Shown here: positions 6,934-19,558 of the stretch, piece after piece
Numbering within the stretch: the first letter of the stretch is position 1
Layout of the letters: each line of letters opens with the position of its first letter
Assembly: GCA_963557675.1 (NCBI GenBank)
Contig: CAUWEI010000028.1
Span: 1-44,990 of the forward strand
From: an uncultured Oscillospiraceae bacterium
Lineage (GTDB): Bacteria > Bacillota > Clostridia > Oscillospirales > Oscillospiraceae
Reading direction: 5' to 3'
DNA: 44,990 nucleotides
Made by a program: the position numbers and the translations under genes
The notes under the pieces: model-generated
The model's database searches: none
The model's input: only the letters and a program-made list of their open reading frames with translations
What the model was told of the DNA's origin: nothing

Positions 6934-6970
6934 TAAAATGCAGGAGTGGAAATTCCACTCCTGCATTTTT
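6934..6970 (+). terminator. Intrinsic terminator after rsgA
   Basis: Long perfect inverted repeat AAAATGCAGGAGTGGAA-A-TTCCACTCCTGCATTTT followed by T. Confidence 0.85.
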
Positions 6971-7000: not shown

Positions 7001-7041
7001 GTGATAAAATCACAGAAGAGGGGAAAGACATATGGTAGAAT
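7001..7041 (+). promoter_or_regulatory. Putative Crp/Fnr-activated promoter of the first thioredoxin
   Basis: GTGA-TAAAA-TCAC (7001-7013), then 22 nt, then TAGAAT (7036-7041) with an extended TG. No recognisable -35. Confidence 0.65.
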
Positions 7042-7083
7042 CGAGCCATAAAACAAAACAAAAGACATCAAGGAGGAACAAAT

Positions 7084-7395
7084 ATGTCTGCAATTACGAT
7101 TACAAAAAACAACTTCCAGCAGGAAGTGATGGAAAGCGATAAGCCTGTTCTGTTGGATTTCTGGGCCAGCTGGTGCACCCCTTGCAAGATGGTTTCTCCC
7201 ATTATTGACGAGATTGCCAAGGAGCGGCCGGATATTAAGGTTTGCAAGGTGAACGTGGAGGAGCAGAAGGAGCTGGCTTCCGCTTTTCAGGTTATGAGCA
7301 TTCCTGCTCTCATGGTGATGCAAAATGGCGAGATTGTCAACGAGATGGTAGGCGCACGGCCCAAGAGCCGGATTCTGTCTATGCTGGAAAACTAA
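7084..7395 (+). CDS. trxA: Thioredoxin (active site WCTPC)
   Basis: LDFWASWCTPC, the SIP cis-proline motif, 103 aa, RBS AGGAGG. Confidence 0.92.
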   Translation: MSAITITKNNFQQEVMESDKPVLLDFWASWCTPCKMVSPIIDEIAKERPDIKVCKVNVEEQKELASAFQVMSIPALMVMQNGEIVNEMVGARPKSRILSMLEN

Positions 7396-7402
7396 GCAAT
7401 AC

Positions 7403-7440
7403 AAAAAGGAGCTGATTCCACAAGAAATCAGCTTCTTTTT
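7403..7440. terminator. Probably bidirectional terminator between trxA and the Crp/Fnr gene
   Basis: AAAAAGGAGCTGATT-loop-AATCAGCTTCTTTTT, with A and T tails on both sides. Confidence 0.75.
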
Positions 7441-7507
7441 CCATATGTACAATTTTTAGAGATTGCTGCAAAATGTGTCAGGGAGGTTCCACAGGGGGTG
7501 TGGAAGC

Positions 7508-8164
7508 TCAACCGTCCAGTGCTTTCAGACCTTCTATATCGGTAAGGGTGACCGCACCACGGGTCAGATTGACAAGACCTTCGTTTTGGAAATAACGAAG
7601 CATCCTGGTGACTACTTCTCGGGCCGTCCCCAAATGGTGGGCAATTTTTTCATGGGTGATTTTTAAGGTAGTTGTTTCTTCCAGCGTGCTTTCTTCCAGC
7701 AGAAACCCTGCCAGACGTTTATCGAAGCTCTTCCACATAATTTGTTCAATGAGCCACATGACGTCGGAAAACCGGCTGGCCATAAGCTGATTGGCATAGT
7801 TGGCAACAGCGGCAGACTCCTCGGAAAGAGACTTAAAAAGACTTGCAGGGATCACCCACAGGTCCGTATCCTTTTCTGCCTCGATGGTTACGTCAAATTG
7901 GATGTTTTTCATCATGCAGGAGGCGGAAAACAGGCAAATGTCCCGTTCAAAAAGTCGATATAATGTGATTTCCCGTCCATCTTCTGAGAGAATGTACACC
8001 CGAAGCTGACCGGAACGAATCAGAAGCAGGCCGAGACAGTGCATAGAGCCGTTATGAATGACGGTTCCTTTGGCGATCTTACGGCTGCTGCTGGAATTTT
8101 GAATGGTTTCCTGCTGACTGGGGGTCAGCTTGTCCCAAATAGGAAAATAGTTGGAAAAATCCAC
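7508..8164 (-). CDS. Crp/Fnr-family transcriptional regulator
   Basis: cNMP-binding-like beta-barrel (LIRSGQLRVY..EDGREITLY) and a C-terminal HTH, THEKIAHHLGTAREVVTRML. GTG start after GAGGAGG. Confidence 0.92.
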   Translation of the reverse strand: MDFSNYFPIWDKLTPSQQETIQNSSSSRKIAKGTVIHNGSMHCLGLLLIRSGQLRVYILSEDGREITLYRLFERDICLFSASCMMKNIQFDVTIEAEKDTDLWVIPASLFKSLSEESAAVANYANQLMASRFSDVMWLIEQIMWKSFDKRLAGFLLEESTLEETTTLKITHEKIAHHLGTAREVVTRMLRYFQNEGLVNLTRGAVTLTDIEGLKALDG

Positions 8165-8187
8165 AGTGATCCCTCCTCACCTACAAT

Positions 8188-8216
8188 AGTATAGGGGATA
8201 AAGGGGGCGGTGTCAA
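8188..8216 (-). promoter_or_regulatory. SigmaA promoter of the Crp/Fnr gene
   Basis: TTGACA-17 nt-TATACT on the minus strand. Confidence 0.75.
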
Positions 8217-8239
8217 ATCCTTTTTCCATCGGGGATTCG

Positions 8240-8280
8240 GTGACAATATCACGGAAAGAACGGAAGAAACTGGGTATACT
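8240..8280 (+). promoter_or_regulatory. Putative Crp/Fnr-activated promoter of the trx2-trxB operon
   Basis: GTGA-CAATA-TCAC (8240-8252), then 22 nt, then TATACT (8275-8280). Same geometry as 7001-7041. Confidence 0.65.
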
Positions 8281-8310: not shown

Positions 8311-8631
8311 ATGGCTGCTATCGACATTAATCAGGAAGTATTTACCAAAGAGGTGGAGCAGGGAACCGGTATGGTTCTGGTCGACTTTTGGGCACCCTGG
8401 TGCATTCACTGCCGCCGCATCGCCCCTGCTCTGGACCAGGTAGCCCAGAAATATGAGGGCAAAGTACCTGTTCTGAAAGTAAACATTGACGAGGAGCCGG
8501 AACTGGCTCGGAAATATGAAATCAAGAGAATCCCCACTTTGACGGTATTCCGTGCCGGAGAAGCTCTGGGCAGCATCGAAGAGCCTGATTCCAAGGCCAA
8601 GATCGAGGCCCTGATCGAGGAGCATCTGTAA
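8311..8631 (+). CDS. Thioredoxin (active site WCIHC)
   Basis: VDFWAPWCIHC, the IPT motif, 106 aa, directly upstream of trxB. Confidence 0.9.
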   Translation: MAAIDINQEVFTKEVEQGTGMVLVDFWAPWCIHCRRIAPALDQVAQKYEGKVPVLKVNIDEEPELARKYEIKRIPTLTVFRAGEALGSIEEPDSKAKIEALIEEHL

Positions 8632-8643
8632 GGAGGAAATCCT

Positions 8644-9561
8644 ATGGAGCAGATTTATGATGTCATGGTCGTAGGCGGTGGCCCTGGTGGTTATACCGCT
8701 GCCATGTACTGTGCCAGGGCCGGTCTTCGGACTGTGGTTTTGGAAAAGCTTTCCGCAGGCGGTCAGGCAGCACTTACCGAGTGGATTGACAACTACCCCG
8801 GCTTCGAGGAAGGAATCGACGGCTTTACACTGGGCGATAAAATGCGTCTGGGTGCAGAACGGTTTGGAGCAGAAACGGTCTATGCAGAAGTAACGGCCTT
8901 GTCTCTGAAGGATAAGGTGAAGACAGCTCAGACCAGTGAGGGTGTATTTCAGGCCCGGGCGGTTATTTTCGCCACGGGAGCTAACCCCAGAAAGTTGAAC
9001 CTGCCGGAGGAAGAGGCCCTGCTGGGTCGAGGGGTACACTACTGCGCCACCTGTGATGGTATGTTCTACAAAGGAAAGACCGTTGCAGTAGTAGGCGGCG
9101 GCAACAGTGCCGCAGCAGAGGCACTGGTTCTGTCCCGAATTGCGAAAAAGGTTATCGTGGTTCATCGTCGGGACAGCCTTCGTGCTACCAAGATTTACCA
9201 TGAGCCTTTGATGCAGGCGGAAAATGTGGAGTTCCGTTGGAATTCCACCGTGGAAGAACTTCTGCATGACAAGACACTCACGGGAATCATCTTGAAGGAC
9301 GTCAACACCGGAGAGCGGACACAGGTGGACTGCGATGGCGTGTTTGTCAGCATTGGCAGAAACCCCAACACAGAGCTGGTGCAGGGAGTCGTTACTCTGG
9401 ACAGAGGCTATGTGGTGGCGGATGAGTCCACCCGGACCAACCTCCCCGGCGTGTTTGCTGTGGGCGATGTCCGGACCAAGGCATTGCGTCAGGTTGCCAC
9501 GGCAGTGGGGGACGGCGCAACAGCCAGCCACTATGTGGAAGAATATCTTGCAGAACAGTAA
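8644..9561 (+). CDS. trxB: Thioredoxin-disulfide reductase
   Basis: GGGPGG FAD motif, YCATCDG redox centre, GGGNSA and HRRD NADPH motifs, FAVGDV. Confidence 0.95.
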   Translation: MEQIYDVMVVGGGPGGYTAAMYCARAGLRTVVLEKLSAGGQAALTEWIDNYPGFEEGIDGFTLGDKMRLGAERFGAETVYAEVTALSLKDKVKTAQTSEGVFQARAVIFATGANPRKLNLPEEEALLGRGVHYCATCDGMFYKGKTVAVVGGGNSAAAEALVLSRIAKKVIVVHRRDSLRATKIYHEPLMQAENVEFRWNSTVEELLHDKTLTGIILKDVNTGERTQVDCDGVFVSIGRNPNTELVQGVVTLDRGYVVADESTRTNLPGVFAVGDVRTKALRQVATAVGDGATASHYVEEYLAEQ

Positions 9562-13347: not shown

Positions 13348-15189
13348 TTATCGCCCGGCTCTTGTAGCGTTCAGAATGGCAAGAACTGCCACACCAACAT
13401 CTGCAAAGATAGCCAGCCACATGGAGGCATAGCCCAGAACACTCAAGAGTAGAACGGCAAATTTGATACCCAATGCAAACACAATGTTCTGATGTGCGAC
13501 CGCCATGGTCTTTCGTGCAATGGAAATGGCTTTGGGAAGACCTTTCAGATCGTCATTCAAAAGTACCAGGTCAGCAGCTTCTACAGCTGCATCGGAACCA
13601 ATGCCGCCCATAGCTACGCCAACCTCTGCAAGGGCCAACACAGGGGCATCATTGACACCGTCGCCCACAAAGATCACAGGGGAAGTACCGTCAATGAGGG
13701 AGCGAACCTTCTCCACCTTATCCTGAGGCAGCAGGCCGGAAAACCACTTGGTAAGACTCAGCTCTTTTGCCACAGACTGGGCAGCTTCTTCCCGGTCGCC
13801 TGTGAGCATGACCGTCTCCTGTACACCCAAATCATGAAGCTGCCTGAGAACCTGGGCTGCATCAGGCTTTAAGGTATCAGAAAGATGGATAGAACCTGCA
13901 TAGACACCGTCCACAGCGGCATAAACCGCAGTGCCTCCCACAGAGGGCAAAGAGGGGGTAAATCCGTTTTCTTCCATGAACAGAGCATTTCCTGCCAGTA
14001 CCTTGTGTCCGTCCACCAGAGCGCAGATACCACGGCCGGGAACCTCTTTAAGCTCCTCGACTGTCTGCGTACGATTCCCTGCGGCGGCAACAATGGCACG
14101 GCCAATGGGATGTGTAGAAGCACTTTCCGCTCCGGCTACAAAGGCTAGAAGCTTCTCTTTGTCCATGGTTTTGGCATCGATGGAGGTGACGGAAAAGGTT
14201 CCTGTGGTCAGGGTACCGGTTTTGTCAAAGACCGCAGTTTTGGCCTTGGCCAAATTCTCCAGTGCAATGCCGCCCTTTGCAATCATGCCGGCTTTGGATG
14301 TAGCACCCATGCCGCCGAAGAAGCTCAGGGGAACGGAAATAACCAGAGCGCAGGGGCAGGAGACAACCAGGAAGTTGAGGGCACGGGTAATCCATTTCAG
14401 AAATTGCCACCCGTCAAAGATGGGGGGAATCAGGGCCAGAGCCAGGGCACCAAAAACCACACAGGGGGTATAGACTCTGGCAAAGCGAGTAATAAGACTT
14501 TCGGTTTTGGATTTTCCTTCTGTGGCAGACTCCATAAGCTCCAGAATCCGGGCCACAGTGGAAGAGGCGTATTCACTTTGCGCCTCAATGATGAGAATAC
14601 CGCTGATGTTGATGCAGCCGGAGAGAATGGAGTCTCTCGGTCCCACATCACGGGGAACGGATTCTCCTGTGATTTTTGAGGTGTCAACGGAAGAGTTGCC
14701 GGAGAGGACCACACCGTCTACAGGTATCCGATGACCGGGCAGAACCTGAATCCGGTCGCCCACTTCAACCTCTTCCGGGTCACACTCCACGGCTTCCCCG
14801 TTTCGCAGCACCAGAGCTACATCAGGCCGCAAATCCATGAGAGAGGCAACCGATTTTCTGGAGCGTTCCACAGCCACACTCTGGAACAGCTCGCCCACCT
14901 GGAAAAACAGCATGACAGCGGCACCTTCTGTGAAGTCGCCTAAGGCAAAAGCACCGATGGTAGCCACGCTCATAAGAAAATTCTCGTCAAAGACCTGTCC
15001 GTGACCAATACTTCTAAATGCTTTCCGGGCAATTTCCAGACCGCACAGAAGCCAGGAGCCAAAGAGAAGGCCACGGGAAAGCCACAGCCCCAGAGCACCG
15101 GGAAGCGTATGCTCCAAAACAATTCCAACAATAAAGCATCCAAAACCCAGAAGAATCCGGGTCAAAAGTCGTTTTTGTTTCTTTGTCAT
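13348..15189 (-). CDS. cadA: Zn/Cd/Pb-translocating P1B-type ATPase (CadA/ZntA-like) lacking an N-terminal metal-binding domain
   Basis: TGES, SCPC, DKTGT, the HP motif and GDGVND, plus the P1B-2-type C-terminal K and ADVG. Confidence 0.9.
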   Translation of the reverse strand: MTKKQKRLLTRILLGFGCFIVGIVLEHTLPGALGLWLSRGLLFGSWLLCGLEIARKAFRSIGHGQVFDENFLMSVATIGAFALGDFTEGAAVMLFFQVGELFQSVAVERSRKSVASLMDLRPDVALVLRNGEAVECDPEEVEVGDRIQVLPGHRIPVDGVVLSGNSSVDTSKITGESVPRDVGPRDSILSGCINISGILIIEAQSEYASSTVARILELMESATEGKSKTESLITRFARVYTPCVVFGALALALIPPIFDGWQFLKWITRALNFLVVSCPCALVISVPLSFFGGMGATSKAGMIAKGGIALENLAKAKTAVFDKTGTLTTGTFSVTSIDAKTMDKEKLLAFVAGAESASTHPIGRAIVAAAGNRTQTVEELKEVPGRGICALVDGHKVLAGNALFMEENGFTPSLPSVGGTAVYAAVDGVYAGSIHLSDTLKPDAAQVLRQLHDLGVQETVMLTGDREEAAQSVAKELSLTKWFSGLLPQDKVEKVRSLIDGTSPVIFVGDGVNDAPVLALAEVGVAMGGIGSDAAVEAADLVLLNDDLKGLPKAISIARKTMAVAHQNIVFALGIKFAVLLLSVLGYASMWLAIFADVGVAVLAILNATRAGR

Positions 15190-15410
15190 TTTACAACCAG
15201 TCGGCAGTCAGCGTTGATCTTGGTAATGATCTGCTGACACTCGTTCAATAAGCCTTCCATATCAGTGCCCTCCGGAACCACCAGAGACAGGCGGGAGGTC
15301 AAGAAGCTGATGGTGGCCTTTTCTACTTGGGGGAGTTTGGAAATAGCAGCTTCCATTTTTGCTGCACAGTTGGCGCAATCCAGTTCTTCCAATGCGTAAG
15401 ATTTTCTCAT
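15186..15410 (-). CDS. Stand-alone heavy-metal-associated (HMA) domain protein
   Basis: ELDCANCAAKME motif, 74 aa, ATGA overlap with cadA. Confidence 0.85.
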   Translation of the reverse strand: MRKSYALEELDCANCAAKMEAAISKLPQVEKATISFLTSRLSLVVPEGTDMEGLLNECQQIITKINADCRLVVK

Positions 15411-15413
15411 GGT

Positions 15414-15710
15414 TCATTCCTCCAAATGATCTTTTGCCATCCCAAGGATGGTTTTTACATGGTCGTCGGCTAAGCTGTATCCCACCAGTTTTCCCTGGCG
15501 GCGGCTTTTTACCAGCTTGGCCTGCTTCAAAATGCGGAGCTGATGGGAAATGGCAGATTGACTGGCACCTACCTGGTCCGCCAGCTCCTGAACGTACTGT
15601 TCTCCCTGGAACAGACAGCACAGAATTTTGATTCGGGTGGAGTCTCCAAAGACTCTGAATAGCTCTGCCATATCAATTAGGTTGTCTTCATTTTTCAAGA
15701 AATTCTCCAT
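15414..15710 (-). CDS. ArsR/SmtB-family metal-sensing repressor (alpha5 site, CzrA/SmtB-like)
   Basis: FGDSTRIKIL, the SQSAISHQLRIL HTH and DxHx10HxxE (DDHVKTILGMAKDHLEE). ATG at 15710 follows AGGAG. Confidence 0.9.
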   Translation of the reverse strand: MENFLKNEDNLIDMAELFRVFGDSTRIKILCCLFQGEQYVQELADQVGASQSAISHQLRILKQAKLVKSRRQGKLVGYSLADDHVKTILGMAKDHLEE

Positions 15711-15744
15711 TCCATCACTCCTGTACAAGTTCTCATATCTTCAC

Positions 15745-15795
15745 ATGAACAACTGTTCATATATTCAGTATACACAATGCCGACGTCTCTGTCAA
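15745..15795 (-). promoter_or_regulatory. SigmaA promoter with an ArsR/CzrA-type operator for arsR-HMA-cadA
   Basis: TTGACA (15795-15790)-17 nt-TATACT (15772-15767). The palindrome ATGAACA-AC-TGTTCAT (15745-15760) lies just downstream. Confidence 0.8.
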
Positions 15796-15818
15796 GAGGG
15801 CGGCGGCAATTTTTTTGA

Positions 15819-16601
15819 TTATCCCAGAGCCACATCCATGGCCATCATAACCGTAAACCCCAAGGTGAAACAGAGGGTAGGCAAATCGGAATGAGGTTCT
15901 TGTGCCATTTCCGGAACCAATTCTTCTACCACTACATAAATCATAGCTCCTGCGGCAAAGCTTAGAAAGTAGGGAAGAATGGGGACGACCATAGAGGCGG
16001 CTAAAATGGTAACAATTGCACCCAGTGGTTCAATGACACCGGAACCAACGCCATAGAGAAAAGATTTGAAGATTCCTTTTCCCTGTGAACGCAAGGGCAT
16101 GGAAATAATGGCTCCTTCCGGGAAATTCTGAATGGCGATTCCCATAGACAGGGCCATAGCACCGGCTACCGTAATGCCTGCCTGCCCTGTCATCAGTCCG
16201 GCATAAATGACACCGACCGCCATTCCTTCCGGCAGGTTGTGCAGCGTAACCGCCAGCACCAGCATGGTACTGCGGCCCAGAGAGCTGGCAGGGCCTTCAC
16301 TGTGGGTACTGCCGGAATGAAGATGTGGGATGATGTGGTCGAGAAGCAGAAGAAACCCAACACCAAGCCAGAATCCTACAACGGCTGGGATAAACGCCCA
16401 TGGCCCCATATGTTCCGATTGCTCCATTGCAGGAATCAACAGACTCCATACCGAGGCAGCCACCATCACTCCGGCAGCAAACCCGGTAAGACTCCGCTGC
16501 AACAGAGCATTCAGACGACCTCTCATAAAAAATACACAGGCTGCTCCCAGAGAAGTTCCCAAAAAGGGAACTAAAATTCCTTTCCAAACTTCACTATTCA
16601 T
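15819..16601 (-). CDS. ZIP-family (ZupT/GufA) metal transporter
   Basis: TLHNLPEG and IQNFPEG motifs, a His-containing loop (IPHLHSGSTH) and multiple TM helices. ATG at 16601 follows AAAGGAG. Confidence 0.9.
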   Translation of the reverse strand: MNSEVWKGILVPFLGTSLGAACVFFMRGRLNALLQRSLTGFAAGVMVAASVWSLLIPAMEQSEHMGPWAFIPAVVGFWLGVGFLLLLDHIIPHLHSGSTHSEGPASSLGRSTMLVLAVTLHNLPEGMAVGVIYAGLMTGQAGITVAGAMALSMGIAIQNFPEGAIISMPLRSQGKGIFKSFLYGVGSGVIEPLGAIVTILAASMVVPILPYFLSFAAGAMIYVVVEELVPEMAQEPHSDLPTLCFTLGFTVMMAMDVALG

Positions 16602-16672
16602 GTAATACCACTCCTTTCGCAAACTATTTTCAGGCTATGCAAAAAAGATCAAATTGGTTCCCCAAAAAAGAC

Positions 16673-16726
16673 TTGACAAAAAAGAAGGGCAGGTATATAC
16701 TGTGAATATACCCCAGGGGGGTATAT
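16673..16726 (+). promoter_or_regulatory. SigmaA promoter with a CsoR operator
   Basis: TTGACA-17 nt-TATACT, followed by ATATACCCC-AGG-GGGGTATAT (16706-16726), the G/C-tract palindrome typical of CsoR operators. Confidence 0.85.
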
Positions 16727-16740
16727 GGAGGTACAACCGA

Positions 16741-17046
16741 ATGGAAGAAAAAACTTGTTGCTGCAATAAAAAGACAACTCAGCGACCGGAAGAACAGGTA
16801 AAAAAGCTAATGCATCGACTCAGTCGAATAGAAGGTCAGATTCGTGGAATCCGGTCTATGGTGGAAAATGGAGCATACTGCAATGACATTCTCATCCAGT
16901 CTGCTGCTGTAACGGCTGCCATGAACGCATTCAATCGAGAGCTTTTAGCCAGCCACATCCGCAGCTGTGTGGCTCGTGACATCCGAAATGGAGACGACCA
17001 GGTGATCGATGAGCTGGTAGAAACATTGCAAAGACTGATGAAATAA
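16741..17046 (+). CDS. csoR: Copper-sensing repressor CsoR
   Basis: [12 protein letters not shown] and the C-H-C fingerprint (YCND, SHIRSC). It lies upstream of copA. Confidence 0.9.
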
Positions 17047-17059
17047 GGAAGGAGAACAT

Positions 17060-19558
17060 ATGGAACAATATTCTGTAACCGGTATGAGCTGTGCGGCTTG
17101 CAGTGCCAGAGTGGAAAAGAGTGTAAAAAAGGTTCCGGGTGTCGATAAATGCGCTGTAAACCTTTTAACCAATTCCATGGGCATTGAAGGAACCGCAAAG
17201 CCCGAGGACATCATTGCGGCGGTTGAGTCCGCAGGCTATGGAGCTTCCCTGAAGGGAGCGGAAGGTCCGAAGCGCACCAATCAGGAAGATGCGCTGAAAG
17301 ATCGGCAGACTCCGATTCTGAAGCGGCGACTGTGGGTTTCCCTTGGATTCTTAATTGTACTCATGTATATTTCCATGGGTCATGTGATGTGGGGCTGGCC
17401 TGTACCTGCATTTTTAGCAGAAAACCCCGCATCTCTGGCACTGCTGCAGTGTTTGCTTGCCATTGTGATTATGGTAATCAATCAGAAGTTCTTTATCAGT
17501 GGCGTTCAGGGCTTGATCCACGGCGCACCGAATATGGACACGTTGGTAGCCCTTGGCTCTTCGGCTTCGTTCATCTATAGTACGGTGGTTTTGTTCCTCA
17601 TGCTTGGAGCAGACAAAGACGCTGCGGCCCATTATCTCCATGAGCTGTATTTTGAATCTGCCGCTATGATTCTGGTGCTCATTACAGTGGGAAAAATGCT
17701 GGAAGCCAAATCCAAGGGTAAGACCACGGATGCCATTAAGGGACTGATGAATCTTGCACCCAAGACCGCTCGTGTGCTGAGAAACGGGCAGGAAGTGGAG
17801 ATACCTGTGGAGCAGGTGCAAAAGGATGACCTGTTTATAGTGCGGCCCGGCGAAAGCATCCCGGTAGACGGTGTGGTAGTGGATGGACATAGTGCAGTCA
17901 ACGAATCCGCCCTGACCGGAGAAAGCCTTCCTGTGGACAAAGAAAAGGGAGATGCCGTATCTGCTGCCACCATTAACCAGTCCGGCCTTCTGCGATGCAG
18001 AGCCACCCGGGTGGGAGAGGACACCACCTTGTCCCAGATCATTCAGATGGTCAGTGACGCTGCTGCTACGAAGGCACCTATTGCGAAGGTGGCAGATAAA
18101 GTTTCCGGAATCTTCGTCCCAGTGGTCATTTCGATTGCTTTGATCACCACAGTGGTTTGGCTCCTTTTGGGCCATAGCATTGGATTTGCTCTGGCAAGAG
18201 GTGTTTCCGTTCTGGTTATCAGCTGCCCCTGTGCGTTGGGTCTGGCTACTCCCGTTGCCATTATGGTGGGAAGTGGCTCCGGTGCGAAAAACGGTATTCT
18301 CTTTAAGACTGCCCAGTCTCTGGAAGAGGCTGGCAAGGTGGAAATTGTGGCACTGGATAAAACCGGTACTATCACTTCCGGCGAACCTCGTGTAACAGAT
18401 ATTTTGCCTACAGGGGATGTGGAAGAATCCAGACTGCTTTCTCTGGCCAATGCGCTGGAAGCCAACAGTGAACACCCCTTGGCTCGTGCCATCTTGCAGC
18501 GGGCAGAGGAAGAAAAGCTGCCCAGAATGCAGGTGGAGAACTTCCAGGCGGTGCCGGGAAATGGTCTTACCGCCAACTTCGAGGGAAGCAGTCTTGCAGG
18601 AGGTAATGGAAGCTTTATTGAAAAAATCACCCAGATTCCGCAGCAGGCCAAAAAGCAGGCAGAAGAGCTAGCTCAGCAGGGAAAAACCCCTCTGTTCTTT
18701 GCCCTTGACGGAAGATTCCTGGGCACCATCGCTGTGGCGGATACCATGAAAGAGGACAGTCCTCAGGCTGTGGCGGAGCTGCAAAAGATGGGAATTCGTG
18801 TGGTCATGCTGACCGGCGACAATCCCCGTACTGCTCAGGCCATTGGTAAGGCAGTGGGCGTGGATGAAGTGATTGCAGGCGTCTTGCCTCAGGGAAAAGA
18901 GACTGTCATCCGGGGCCTTCGCCAGCAGGGTAAGGTGGCCATGGTTGGCGACGGTATCAACGATGCCCCAGCTCTTACCCGTGCAGATCTGGGTATTGCC
19001 ATTGGAGCGGGTACTGATGTAGCCATCGATGCCGCCGATGTGGTACTGATGAAGAACCGGCTTACCGATGTCCCTGCCGCCATTCGCCTCAGCCGGGCTA
19101 CACTGCGAAACATCCACGAAAATCTGTTCTGGGCGTTCTTGTATAATACCTTGGGAATTCCTCTGGCCGCAGGTGTACTGATTCCCTTGGGCCTGACCCT
19201 TAATCCCATGTTTGGCGCTGCTGCCATGAGTCTTTCCAGCTTCTGCGTGGTGAGTAATGCACTGCGCTTGAACCTATTCCGTTTGTATGACGGAAGACGG
19301 GATAAAAAGATCCATCATCATACTCATAAAAGAAAGGAGGTTCCTGCTATGACTAAGACCATGAAGATCGAAGGCATGATGTGCGGCCACTGCGAGGCCA
19401 GAGTGAAGAAGACTCTGGAAGCTCTGCCCGAAGTGGAAGCTGCTGAGGTTAGCCATGTGGAGGGCACGGCTGTCGTGACTCTCAATGCCCCTGTGGCAGA
19501 TGAAGTGCTGAAAAATGCCGTGGAGGCTCAGGATTACAAGGTTCTGGAAGTCCGCTAA
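17060..19558 (+). CDS. copA: Copper-exporting P1B-1 ATPase with N- and C-terminal HMA domains
   Basis: GMSCAAC, TGES, SCPC, DKTGT, SEHP, GDGIND, the Cu(I) motifs YN and MxxSS, and a C-terminal GMMCGHC domain. Confidence 0.95.
19349..19558 (+). CDS. Putative nested in-frame CopZ-like chaperone (69 aa) from an internal start in copA
   Basis: AAAGGAGG, 8 nt, then an in-frame ATG exactly at the start of the HMA domain ([15 protein letters not shown]). Confidence 0.5.

Follow-up and report, generated by a model that had tools for sequence, protein, structure and literature searches.

We analysed a stretch of 44,990 nucleotides from an uncultured Oscillospiraceae bacterium (assembly GCA_963557675.1, contig CAUWEI010000028.1, positions 1 to 44,990; hereafter 'the window'), in which a gene for a Crp/Fnr-family regulator (crp) lies between two thioredoxin genes, the second followed by a thioredoxin reductase gene. 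Both thioredoxin promoters carry a palindromic box, GTGA-N5-TCAC, which we find to be a conserved promoter element that accompanies this regulator in clostridia and in Proteobacteria, and which is very likely its binding site. The features of the locus, in window coordinates, are as follows.

6935-6969, no strand: terminator-like 16-bp hairpin after rsgA, which would insulate the first thioredoxin promoter
7001-7013, plus: box 1, GTGA-TAAAA-TCAC, centred at about -41; kept in two close relatives, with a variable linker
7013-7018, plus: vestigial -35 hexamer CAGAAG, 17 nt upstream of the -10, sharing the last base of box 1
7033-7041, plus: extended -10 (TG-G-TAGAAT) of the first thioredoxin promoter; the hexamer is 7036-7041
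7084-7395, plus: thioredoxin 1, 103 aa, WCTPC; TIGR01068 above cut-off
7410-7433, no strand: terminator-like hairpin between the convergent trxA and crp
7508-8164, minus: Crp/Fnr-family regulator crp, 218 aa; 64% identity to PDB 3DV8 (Eubacterium rectale EUBREC_1222)
7604-7621, minus: recognition helix R182-E-V-V-T-R187
7916-7936, minus: C77-x5-C83, a candidate pair for sensing, in the region of the effector pocket
8036-8038, minus: C43, clostridial branch only
8188-8216, minus: crp promoter, near-consensus sigma-70-type, TTGACA-17-TATACT
8240-8252, plus: box 2, GTGA-CAATA-TCAC, centred at about -41; top matrix score in the genome
8252-8257, plus: vestigial -35 hexamer CGGAAA
8275-8280, plus: -10 hexamer TATACT of the trxA2-trxB promoter
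8311-8631, plus: thioredoxin 2, 106 aa, WCIHC; TIGR01068 above cut-off
8644-9561, plus: thioredoxin-disulfide reductase TrxB, 305 aa; TIGR01292 above cut-off

An earlier note on this DNA, made from its letters alone, had placed box 1 (GTGATAAAATCAC) and box 2 (GTGACAATATCAC) exactly 22 nt before good -10 hexamers and centred them near -41. Both statements are borne out: the gap is 22 nt at each promoter, and the centre falls at -41 when the -10 hexamer is set to -12..-7, the start site being derived from the -10. On the same convention, the downstream TCAC half-site occupies -38..-35. The note also held that neither promoter has a recognizable -35, which is true in so far as the hexamers at that place are weak, but they are not random. 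Dereplication of 85 sites at orthologous loci, taken without the window and its two closest relatives, gave 45 promoters, in which positions 3 and 4 of the -35 keep G in 43/45 and A in 41/45, and a G stands at -14 in 34/45. Autoregulation of crp was considered, since box 2 is on the opposite strand about 65 nt ahead of the crp start, and was set aside: crp has its own near-consensus promoter, and no sign of such control was seen. RNA contigs from four gut metatranscriptome runs of one study cover all three genes, but give no starts, strands or levels and may derive from DNA, and are thus uninformative.

Across the 2.47-Mb genome the bare palindrome is not enriched (35 N5 sites as against 40 N6). 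What is enriched is its combination with a promoter. When each box is counted in both directions, a -10 (at least 5/6 match) lies exactly 22 nt from six of 70 oriented N5 sites, where 0.26 would be expected (Poisson P of about 1e-4 with the two discovery sites excluded); a scan for this combination had been suggested in the earlier note. Among 80 oriented N6 sites, only two have a -10 at this distance, and both lack the conserved flank; one falls inside a coding region, and the other is not followed by any open reading frame (ORF) with an ATG start. A matrix built from the 45 dereplicated promoters ranks eight promoters in the genome, at 20.2-39.4 bits and on seven contigs, followed by box 2 read backwards at 19.1 bits, while the maximum in the reversed genome is 14.7 bits. 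Six of the boxed promoters are outside the window, all on other contigs. They precede a rubredoxin (contig C53), a third thioredoxin (C137), a short-chain dehydrogenase/reductase (SDR; C32), a unit of ferredoxin, membrane protein and rhodanese lipoprotein (C170), a unit of CcdA and a TlpA/ResA-like partner (C212, where the distance from box to -10 is 23 nt) and an IS110 element (C18). In all, three of the four thioredoxin-length genes found in this genome are boxed, as is the sole rhodanese found. The earlier proposal of thiol-redox targets is thus upheld by the thioredoxins, TrxB, rubredoxin and CcdA-TlpA. Its description of the regulon as 'self-contained' is not, since the eight promoters are spread over seven contigs and the pair of box and regulator reaches Proteobacteria.

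The earlier note had also suggested footprinting around orthologues. For the clostridial ones, we took the 80 best loci with an encoded relative (67-94% identity) from a total of at least 576. The N5 box occurs 117 times, in 65 of these loci, as against six N6, two N4 and four N7 sites; N3 and N9 spacers gave 19 matches each. A -10 lies exactly 22 nt away from 89 of the 117 N5 sites and from none of the 12 N4, N6 and N7 sites. At 90% DNA identity the loci form 46 clusters, the largest comprising 20 loci from several genera, and N5 occurs in 35 of these clusters and N6 in six. The clostridial consensus, GTGAY-NWN-RTCAC-RGAA, ends in a one-sided RGAA that overlies the -35 hexamer at 17-nt spacing, with its G and A matching positions 3-4 of TTGACA, and we therefore take it to be what is left of a -35 and not an extension of the palindrome.

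The first ORF downstream of 132 oriented candidates (loci L001-L088, eight of which are from this genome) was most commonly thioredoxin- or reductase-like (47), followed by rubredoxin-domain proteins (18), SDRs (14), rhodanese-like proteins (7), a ferredoxin or membrane partner (5), CcdA (2) and a flavodiiron protein (1); no ORF was called in 23, and the other 15 fell into small clusters, mostly spurious opposite-strand calls. A CoA-disulfide reductase (CoADR)-rhodanese fusion, closest to 3ICR, 3NTA and the CoA-persulfide reductase 8A56, is encoded in 31/80 clostridial loci (10/46 clusters), and in L083 it stands directly behind a boxed thioredoxin. In L098 (1352-3871), the box precedes the gene of an 839-aa protein in which CoA-disulfide reductase, rhodanese, TusA and DsrE domains are fused. 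Several genera of Lachnospiraceae and Oscillospiraceae contribute to a group of 20 loci (L020, L036, L041, L042, L046, L050, L052, L053, L057-L059, L062, L064, L067, L072, L074, L077, L079, L082 and L083) that are linked by segments 1 kb or longer and at least 90% identical, with rubrerythrins, the regulator, CoADR-rhodanese, thioredoxin and SDR; such a group is likely a mobile stress cassette.

Some of the boxed genes have neighbourhoods of their own interest. At C18 the IS110 transposase directly follows the boxed promoter (L001 of this genome, G000; 141-1623). Two close relatives (L203 and L219) conserve the box and -10 with a variable linker and have instead a 281-aa AAA+ ATPase gene downstream (584-1541), and it seems from this comparison that the insertion separated the ATPase gene from its promoter. 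The boxed SDR of C32 (L002, 1978-2739) is closest to the solved bile-acid 3-alpha-hydroxysteroid dehydrogenase 4IS2 (E 1e-68), above FabG-like proteins; an SDR like it carries the box in many genomes, and thiol stress may be connected with bile-acid oxidation. Directly upstream of the boxed rubredoxin of C53 are NifX-like and MinD-ferredoxin ATPase genes, forming an orange-protein-like cluster (L003, 4865-6495), and a DUF134-NifX fusion is found near the regulator in 13/80 loci (e.g. L047, 3184-3876).

Promoter pattern and regulator also tend to occur together. A relaxed pattern without the 3' flank was too noisy (144/301 genomes), and a stricter one was used instead. Within the genus (36 genomes), 13 have both pattern and regulator, two the regulator alone, two the pattern alone and 19 neither; for the order (24 genomes), these numbers are three, five, zero and 16, and a near-variant box adjoins the gene in three of the five order genomes with the regulator alone. 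The reversed pattern had no match in genus and order genomes. Of the 13 genus genomes with both, eight have one or more sites on a contig other than that of crp. A phylum sample comprised 300 genomes with a completeness of 95% or more. Here, 15/31 genomes with the regulator (7/16 families) have the strict pattern, as against 2/269 without it, and both exceptions hold full-length homologues just below the cut-off (E 9e-25 and 3e-28); the genomes counted are related and not independent, so that significance is overstated. Together with the spacer counts, this supports the earlier idea of an altered 5-bp spacer at the class II position, tied to the Crp/Fnr protein.

The same pairing is seen in a distant branch. 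In each of the six proteobacterial records examined, a plasmid-borne homologue with 28-34% identity immediately precedes a DUF2892 gene, and the gap between them holds an exact N5 box in five records and a box with one mismatch in the sixth. Persulfide dioxygenase (PDO)-like, Blh/SQR and SulP genes come next in four of the six, and two of those four also have YeeE/DUF6691. In a proteobacterial-type set, for which the 80 best metagenome loci were taken from at least 588 in this branch, we counted 72 N5 sites in 63/80 loci as against eight N6 sites (N5 in 59/75 clusters, N6 in 7/75), with TA at 22 nt in 45 of the 72 and the consensus GTGAC-NWN-GTCAC-NGA. Tolerance of N6 was rejected, there being no N6 site with a -10 at 22 nt in the 160 loci of both sets. 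First downstream ORFs (n = 63) encode YgaP-like/DUF2892 proteins (36), PDO-like proteins (7), peroxiredoxins (4), YeeE (3), TsoY-family proteins (3) and other or spurious products (10), and 48/80 loci have PDO, Blh-SQR, YeeE, DUF6691 or SulP. The boxed TsoY-family (seleno)protein genes are in L175, L176 and L186, and the boxed peroxiredoxin genes in L177, L183, L191 and L194. No recurrent ArsR-type cluster stood out among these 80 loci. Target genes thus differ between the phyla while box and regulator persist, which is the strongest argument for the regulator as the binder.

The regulator is a member of the Crp/Fnr superfamily by its domains and fold: N-terminal cNMP-binding and C-terminal Crp-HTH domains (PF00027, PF13545 and PF00325 above cut-off), and a predicted model (pLDDT 93.5) whose listed Foldseek matches are Crp/Fnr proteins. 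Within the superfamily it belongs with 3DV8/EUBREC_1222 (E 8e-96, TM-score 0.91, D-x-C-x5-C and G-x-x-REV motifs). NCBIfam had no model above cut-off for it, and the ESM Atlas returned unnamed Crp/Fnr clusters only. As the earlier note had seen, the recognition helix is REVVTR, which spans residues 182-187, and the protein's cysteines number three (C43, C77 and C83). Over 160 homologues (80 clostridial and 80 proteobacterial-type), R182, E183, V184, R187 and C77 are found in 160/160 and C83 in 157/160. Thus the sensing role that the note considered for the three cysteines could apply family-wide to C77 and C83, which align to the stretch where CRP binds the cAMP phosphate, but not to C43, which is present in 80/80 clostridial and only 5/80 proteobacterial-type homologues.

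The regulator was compared with CRP, FNR, CooA and HcpR. It shares with E. coli CRP the fold, the RExxxR helix (REVVTR vs RETVGR), the GTGA half-site and, in the class II geometry, the promoter-proximal half-site at -38..-35. However, CRP has a 6-bp spacer and even symmetry (TGTGA-N6-TCACA), which the N6 counts above do not support here, and the family score is far too low (PRK11753, 44 bits vs a cut-off of 266). The cAMP contacts of E. coli CRP, E72, R82, T127 and S128 (mature numbering), align to S80, F90, V135 and M136. As well, the loop that bears activating region 1 in E. coli CRP is 6-7 residues shorter in the six family members aligned (window 7680-7720, crp residues ~155-165), which may explain why the sites occur at the class II position only. 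With regard to FNR, no cysteines align to its N-terminal [4Fe-4S] cluster set, there is no ExxSR helix, and PRK11161 gives 39 bits vs 228. CooA is marked by its haem ligands Cys75/His77 and an N-terminal Pro; in the 1FT9 alignment, its Cys/His positions fall on L78/S80, with no His there. HcpR is divergent from hcp and has a non-CRP recognition helix, neither of which holds for the window regulator. Above the Pfam cut-off, the genome encodes one further Crp/Fnr protein, 15% identical to that of the window. Its gene is divergent from an hcp-like gene, so named from sequence alone (L090 of G000, C126, 1-1689), and it is probably HcpR, the nitrosative-stress regulator.

We propose that GTGAY-NWN-RTCAC is a conserved promoter element at -41 and the likely site of the 3DV8-type protein, acting as a class II activator of thiol-repair and sulfur-detoxification genes, with C77 and C83 likely modified by persulfide or polysulfide. 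Taken whole, this reading seems to us slightly better than an even call, and its parts differ. That the regulator binds the box we hold with high confidence; that it activates transcription, given binding, with nearly as much; and persulfide as the main signal would take about two thirds of what remains after both. The position is as expected of class II, with the site near -41 (again by a start derived from the -10), a weak -35 overlapped and the spacing fixed, and activation is favoured because the spacing is fixed and the -35 hexamers are weak. The dimer would read two GTGA half-sites with its CRP-type helices, 1 bp closer together than in CRP. When CRP binds a class II site at -41.5, its downstream half-site is at -38..-35. 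The TCAC half-site here would keep that register, leaving the polymerase-contacting subunit in place and shifting the upstream half-site alone, and the weak -35 hexamers would make these promoters activator-dependent. Cysteine chemistry would carry the signal. Sulfane sulfur is its most likely source, and in the anaerobic clostridia of the gut, disulfide or oxygen stress would act on the same switch.

According to the available part of a 2026 review, persulfide-sensor regulons comprise SQR, PDO, CoA-persulfide reductase, sulfurtransferases and YeeE/YedE (PMC13467558). Such genes are found in the homologous loci, although this genome contributes only one rhodanese. With this matching gene set, and with a conserved cysteine pair being the usual sensing device, sulfane sulfur is the best guess. 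The pattern is real and conserved across two phyla, and we read it as the class II regulon of a widespread, uncharacterized Crp/Fnr subfamily, with a 13-bp site of odd symmetry. There is a reasonable prospect that the regulator represents a new type of persulfide sensor. More tentatively, and in our view somewhat short of even, it could add a fourth structural class to the primary persulfide sensors of bacteria. This would be a sigma-70-type activator of the Crp/Fnr fold, found from gut clostridia to proteobacteria of sea and soil, whose cAMP pocket has been rebuilt into a cysteine-pair switch and whose dimer has been reshaped for a 13-bp site beyond the reach of a tested relative, carried in a clostridial mobile cassette that links sulfide tolerance, oxygen defence and possibly bile-acid oxidation.

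The nearest known protein is EUBREC_1222 (3DV8), of the same subfamily at 64% identity and far above other solved Crp/Fnr proteins in similarity, which keeps all three cysteines in the alignment. Its structure is titled 'putative transcriptional regulator', and we found no site, regulon or ligand for it in the literature searched. Dithiol-disulfide switches have been reported in Crp/Fnr proteins with even-symmetry sites, namely FLP/FlpA of lactic acid bacteria and Cmr of Mycobacterium tuberculosis. In structure, Cmr resembles the window regulator only distantly (16% identity, TM-score 0.66). SdrP of Thermus thermophilus (TTHA1359) is also a CRP/FNR-family class II activator of oxidative-stress genes according to the accessible text of PMC8465061, but its profile PRK13918 matches the window regulator weakly (35 bits vs a cut-off of 274). 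PgRsp of Porphyromonas gingivalis, as described in the accessible part of PMC6955866, was modelled on 3DV8 and linked to redox stress, as a possible novel Crp/Fnr family, and the G-E-S-C motif is also what we read from its primers around C76. Compared through these primer-derived residues only, it differs in that the second cysteine is absent; it is also reported to bind haem, and sod, rbr and tpx are up in its mutant. No site is defined in that part of the paper, where 'binding site', 'consensus' and 'palindrom' each have zero occurrences.

CstR (CsoR family), SqrR/BigR (ArsR) and FisR (Fis) control the same gene set via a cysteine pair, going by the available parts of PMC13467558 and PMC9774590. 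In contrast, their folds are unrelated to that of the window regulator, which is Crp/Fnr only, and they are mostly repressors or a sigma-54 activator; the same parts of these two papers list no Crp/Fnr protein as a primary persulfide sensor. The persulfidated Crp of A. baumannii was rejected as a relative, being CRP/Vfr-like and of another subfamily (PMC7315123, accessible text). Matsui et al. (PMC3590769) have, in the available text, nothing on spacers, thioredoxin or Clostridia, and the available text of a C. difficile thioredoxin paper (PMC10880999) does not mention Crp/Fnr. We found no description of the box or regulon in a literature coverage that leaves curated regulon databases and most subscription journals outside, and we consider it rather unlikely, but not negligibly so, that one exists.

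The most serious rival leaves regulator, site and activation as they are and changes the signal, either to general disulfide, oxygen or peroxide stress or to a haem or metal cofactor held by the cysteines, the protein being an Spx-like thiol-stress activator. We think it unlikely, though it has much to draw on: the targets in this genome are mainly thioredoxins, TrxB, CcdA-TlpA, rubredoxin and ferredoxin, and rubrerythrin, desulfoferrodoxin and flavodiiron genes are boxed elsewhere, so that with rubredoxin the clostridial targets suggest oxygen or peroxide no less than sulfur, which also tells against our own proposal. On the other hand, the proteobacterial targets are mostly sulfide-oxidation genes, and rhodaneses and CoADR-rhodanese(-TusA-DsrE) fusions recur in clostridia. 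Also in favour of this rival are the cysteine region of CooA, which aligns near C77, and PgRsp, which binds haem and affects oxidative-stress genes; however, C76A left the haem spectra of PgRsp unaltered, and the C83 counterpart is the cysteine that the primer reading finds missing there (PMC6955866, accessible part). Repression, in which the regulator covers the -35 region and releases DNA on oxidation like CstR, SqrR and BigR, is improbable. While most known persulfide sensors do act by derepression (PMC13467558, available part) and the box shares one base with the -35 hexamer, the near-fixed spacing (72 sites at 22 nt, 16 at 21 and at most eight at any other distance) and the weak -35 hexamers are expected of a polymerase-contacting activator and not of a steric repressor.

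More improbable still is that another factor owns the box and is co-inherited with the gene set, the Crp/Fnr protein being a bystander or binding elsewhere. The GTGA half-site suits the invariant RExxxR helix, this regulator is the only shared element found between clostridial and proteobacterial loci, and no second regulator cluster recurs in most loci of either set; in favour of another factor is an Rrf2 regulator gene found in 13/80 proteobacterial-type loci. Two further findings on that side also weigh against our reading. Two metagenome-assembled genomes of the genus (91% and 77% complete) have the pattern and no regulator match, and TTHA1359, whose consensus is AWTGTRA-N6-TYACAWT, does not tolerate a 5-bp spacer, which abolishes its binding (PMC8465061, accessible text); the N5 site thus requires a changed dimer geometry. 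Other points on this side, besides the relatedness of the genomes compared, are the 15/80 clostridial and 17/80 proteobacterial-type loci without an exact box, the 16/31 regulator-bearing phylum genomes that lack the strict pattern, the lack of a box in the Persicobacter, Pusillibacter and Fusobacterium records examined, a Bacillus record whose near-box (one mismatch) accompanies a homologue without C83, and our finding no boxed CoADR-rhodanese in this genome. In the tree (outgroups E. coli CRP, FNR and an HcpR-like protein; Fusobacterium row poorly placed), the clostridial-proteobacterial grouping is weakly supported (71/98) on long branches, and for kinship the shared motifs and shared box are the better evidence. 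Finally, that the two palindromes arose by chance has negligible probability: the bare box is as rare in the genome as its N6 counterpart, but conservation in two phyla, the spacer bias, the excess of -10 elements at 22 nt, the matrix scores and the co-occurrence with the regulator refute it.

With our proposal, a widespread Crp/Fnr subfamily whose crystal structure dates from 2008, and for which we found no function, would gain a site, a regulon and a candidate signal. Its 5-bp spacer departs from the usual CRP-family rule and raises a direct structural question. The protein is a candidate regulator for the induction of thioredoxin, rubredoxin and persulfide reductase in oxygen-sensitive clostridia of the sulfide-rich gut, as well as for Rhodobacterales pdo-sqr operons with no ArsR-type sensor seen nearby, and the pattern is specific enough for direct prediction of the regulon from genomes. 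Elsewhere in the window, a few kilobases from the thioredoxin locus, lies a metal-resistance-like cluster (13348-19558) with, by appearance, two heavy-metal P-type ATPases and ArsR-like, ZIP-like and CsoR-like ORFs.

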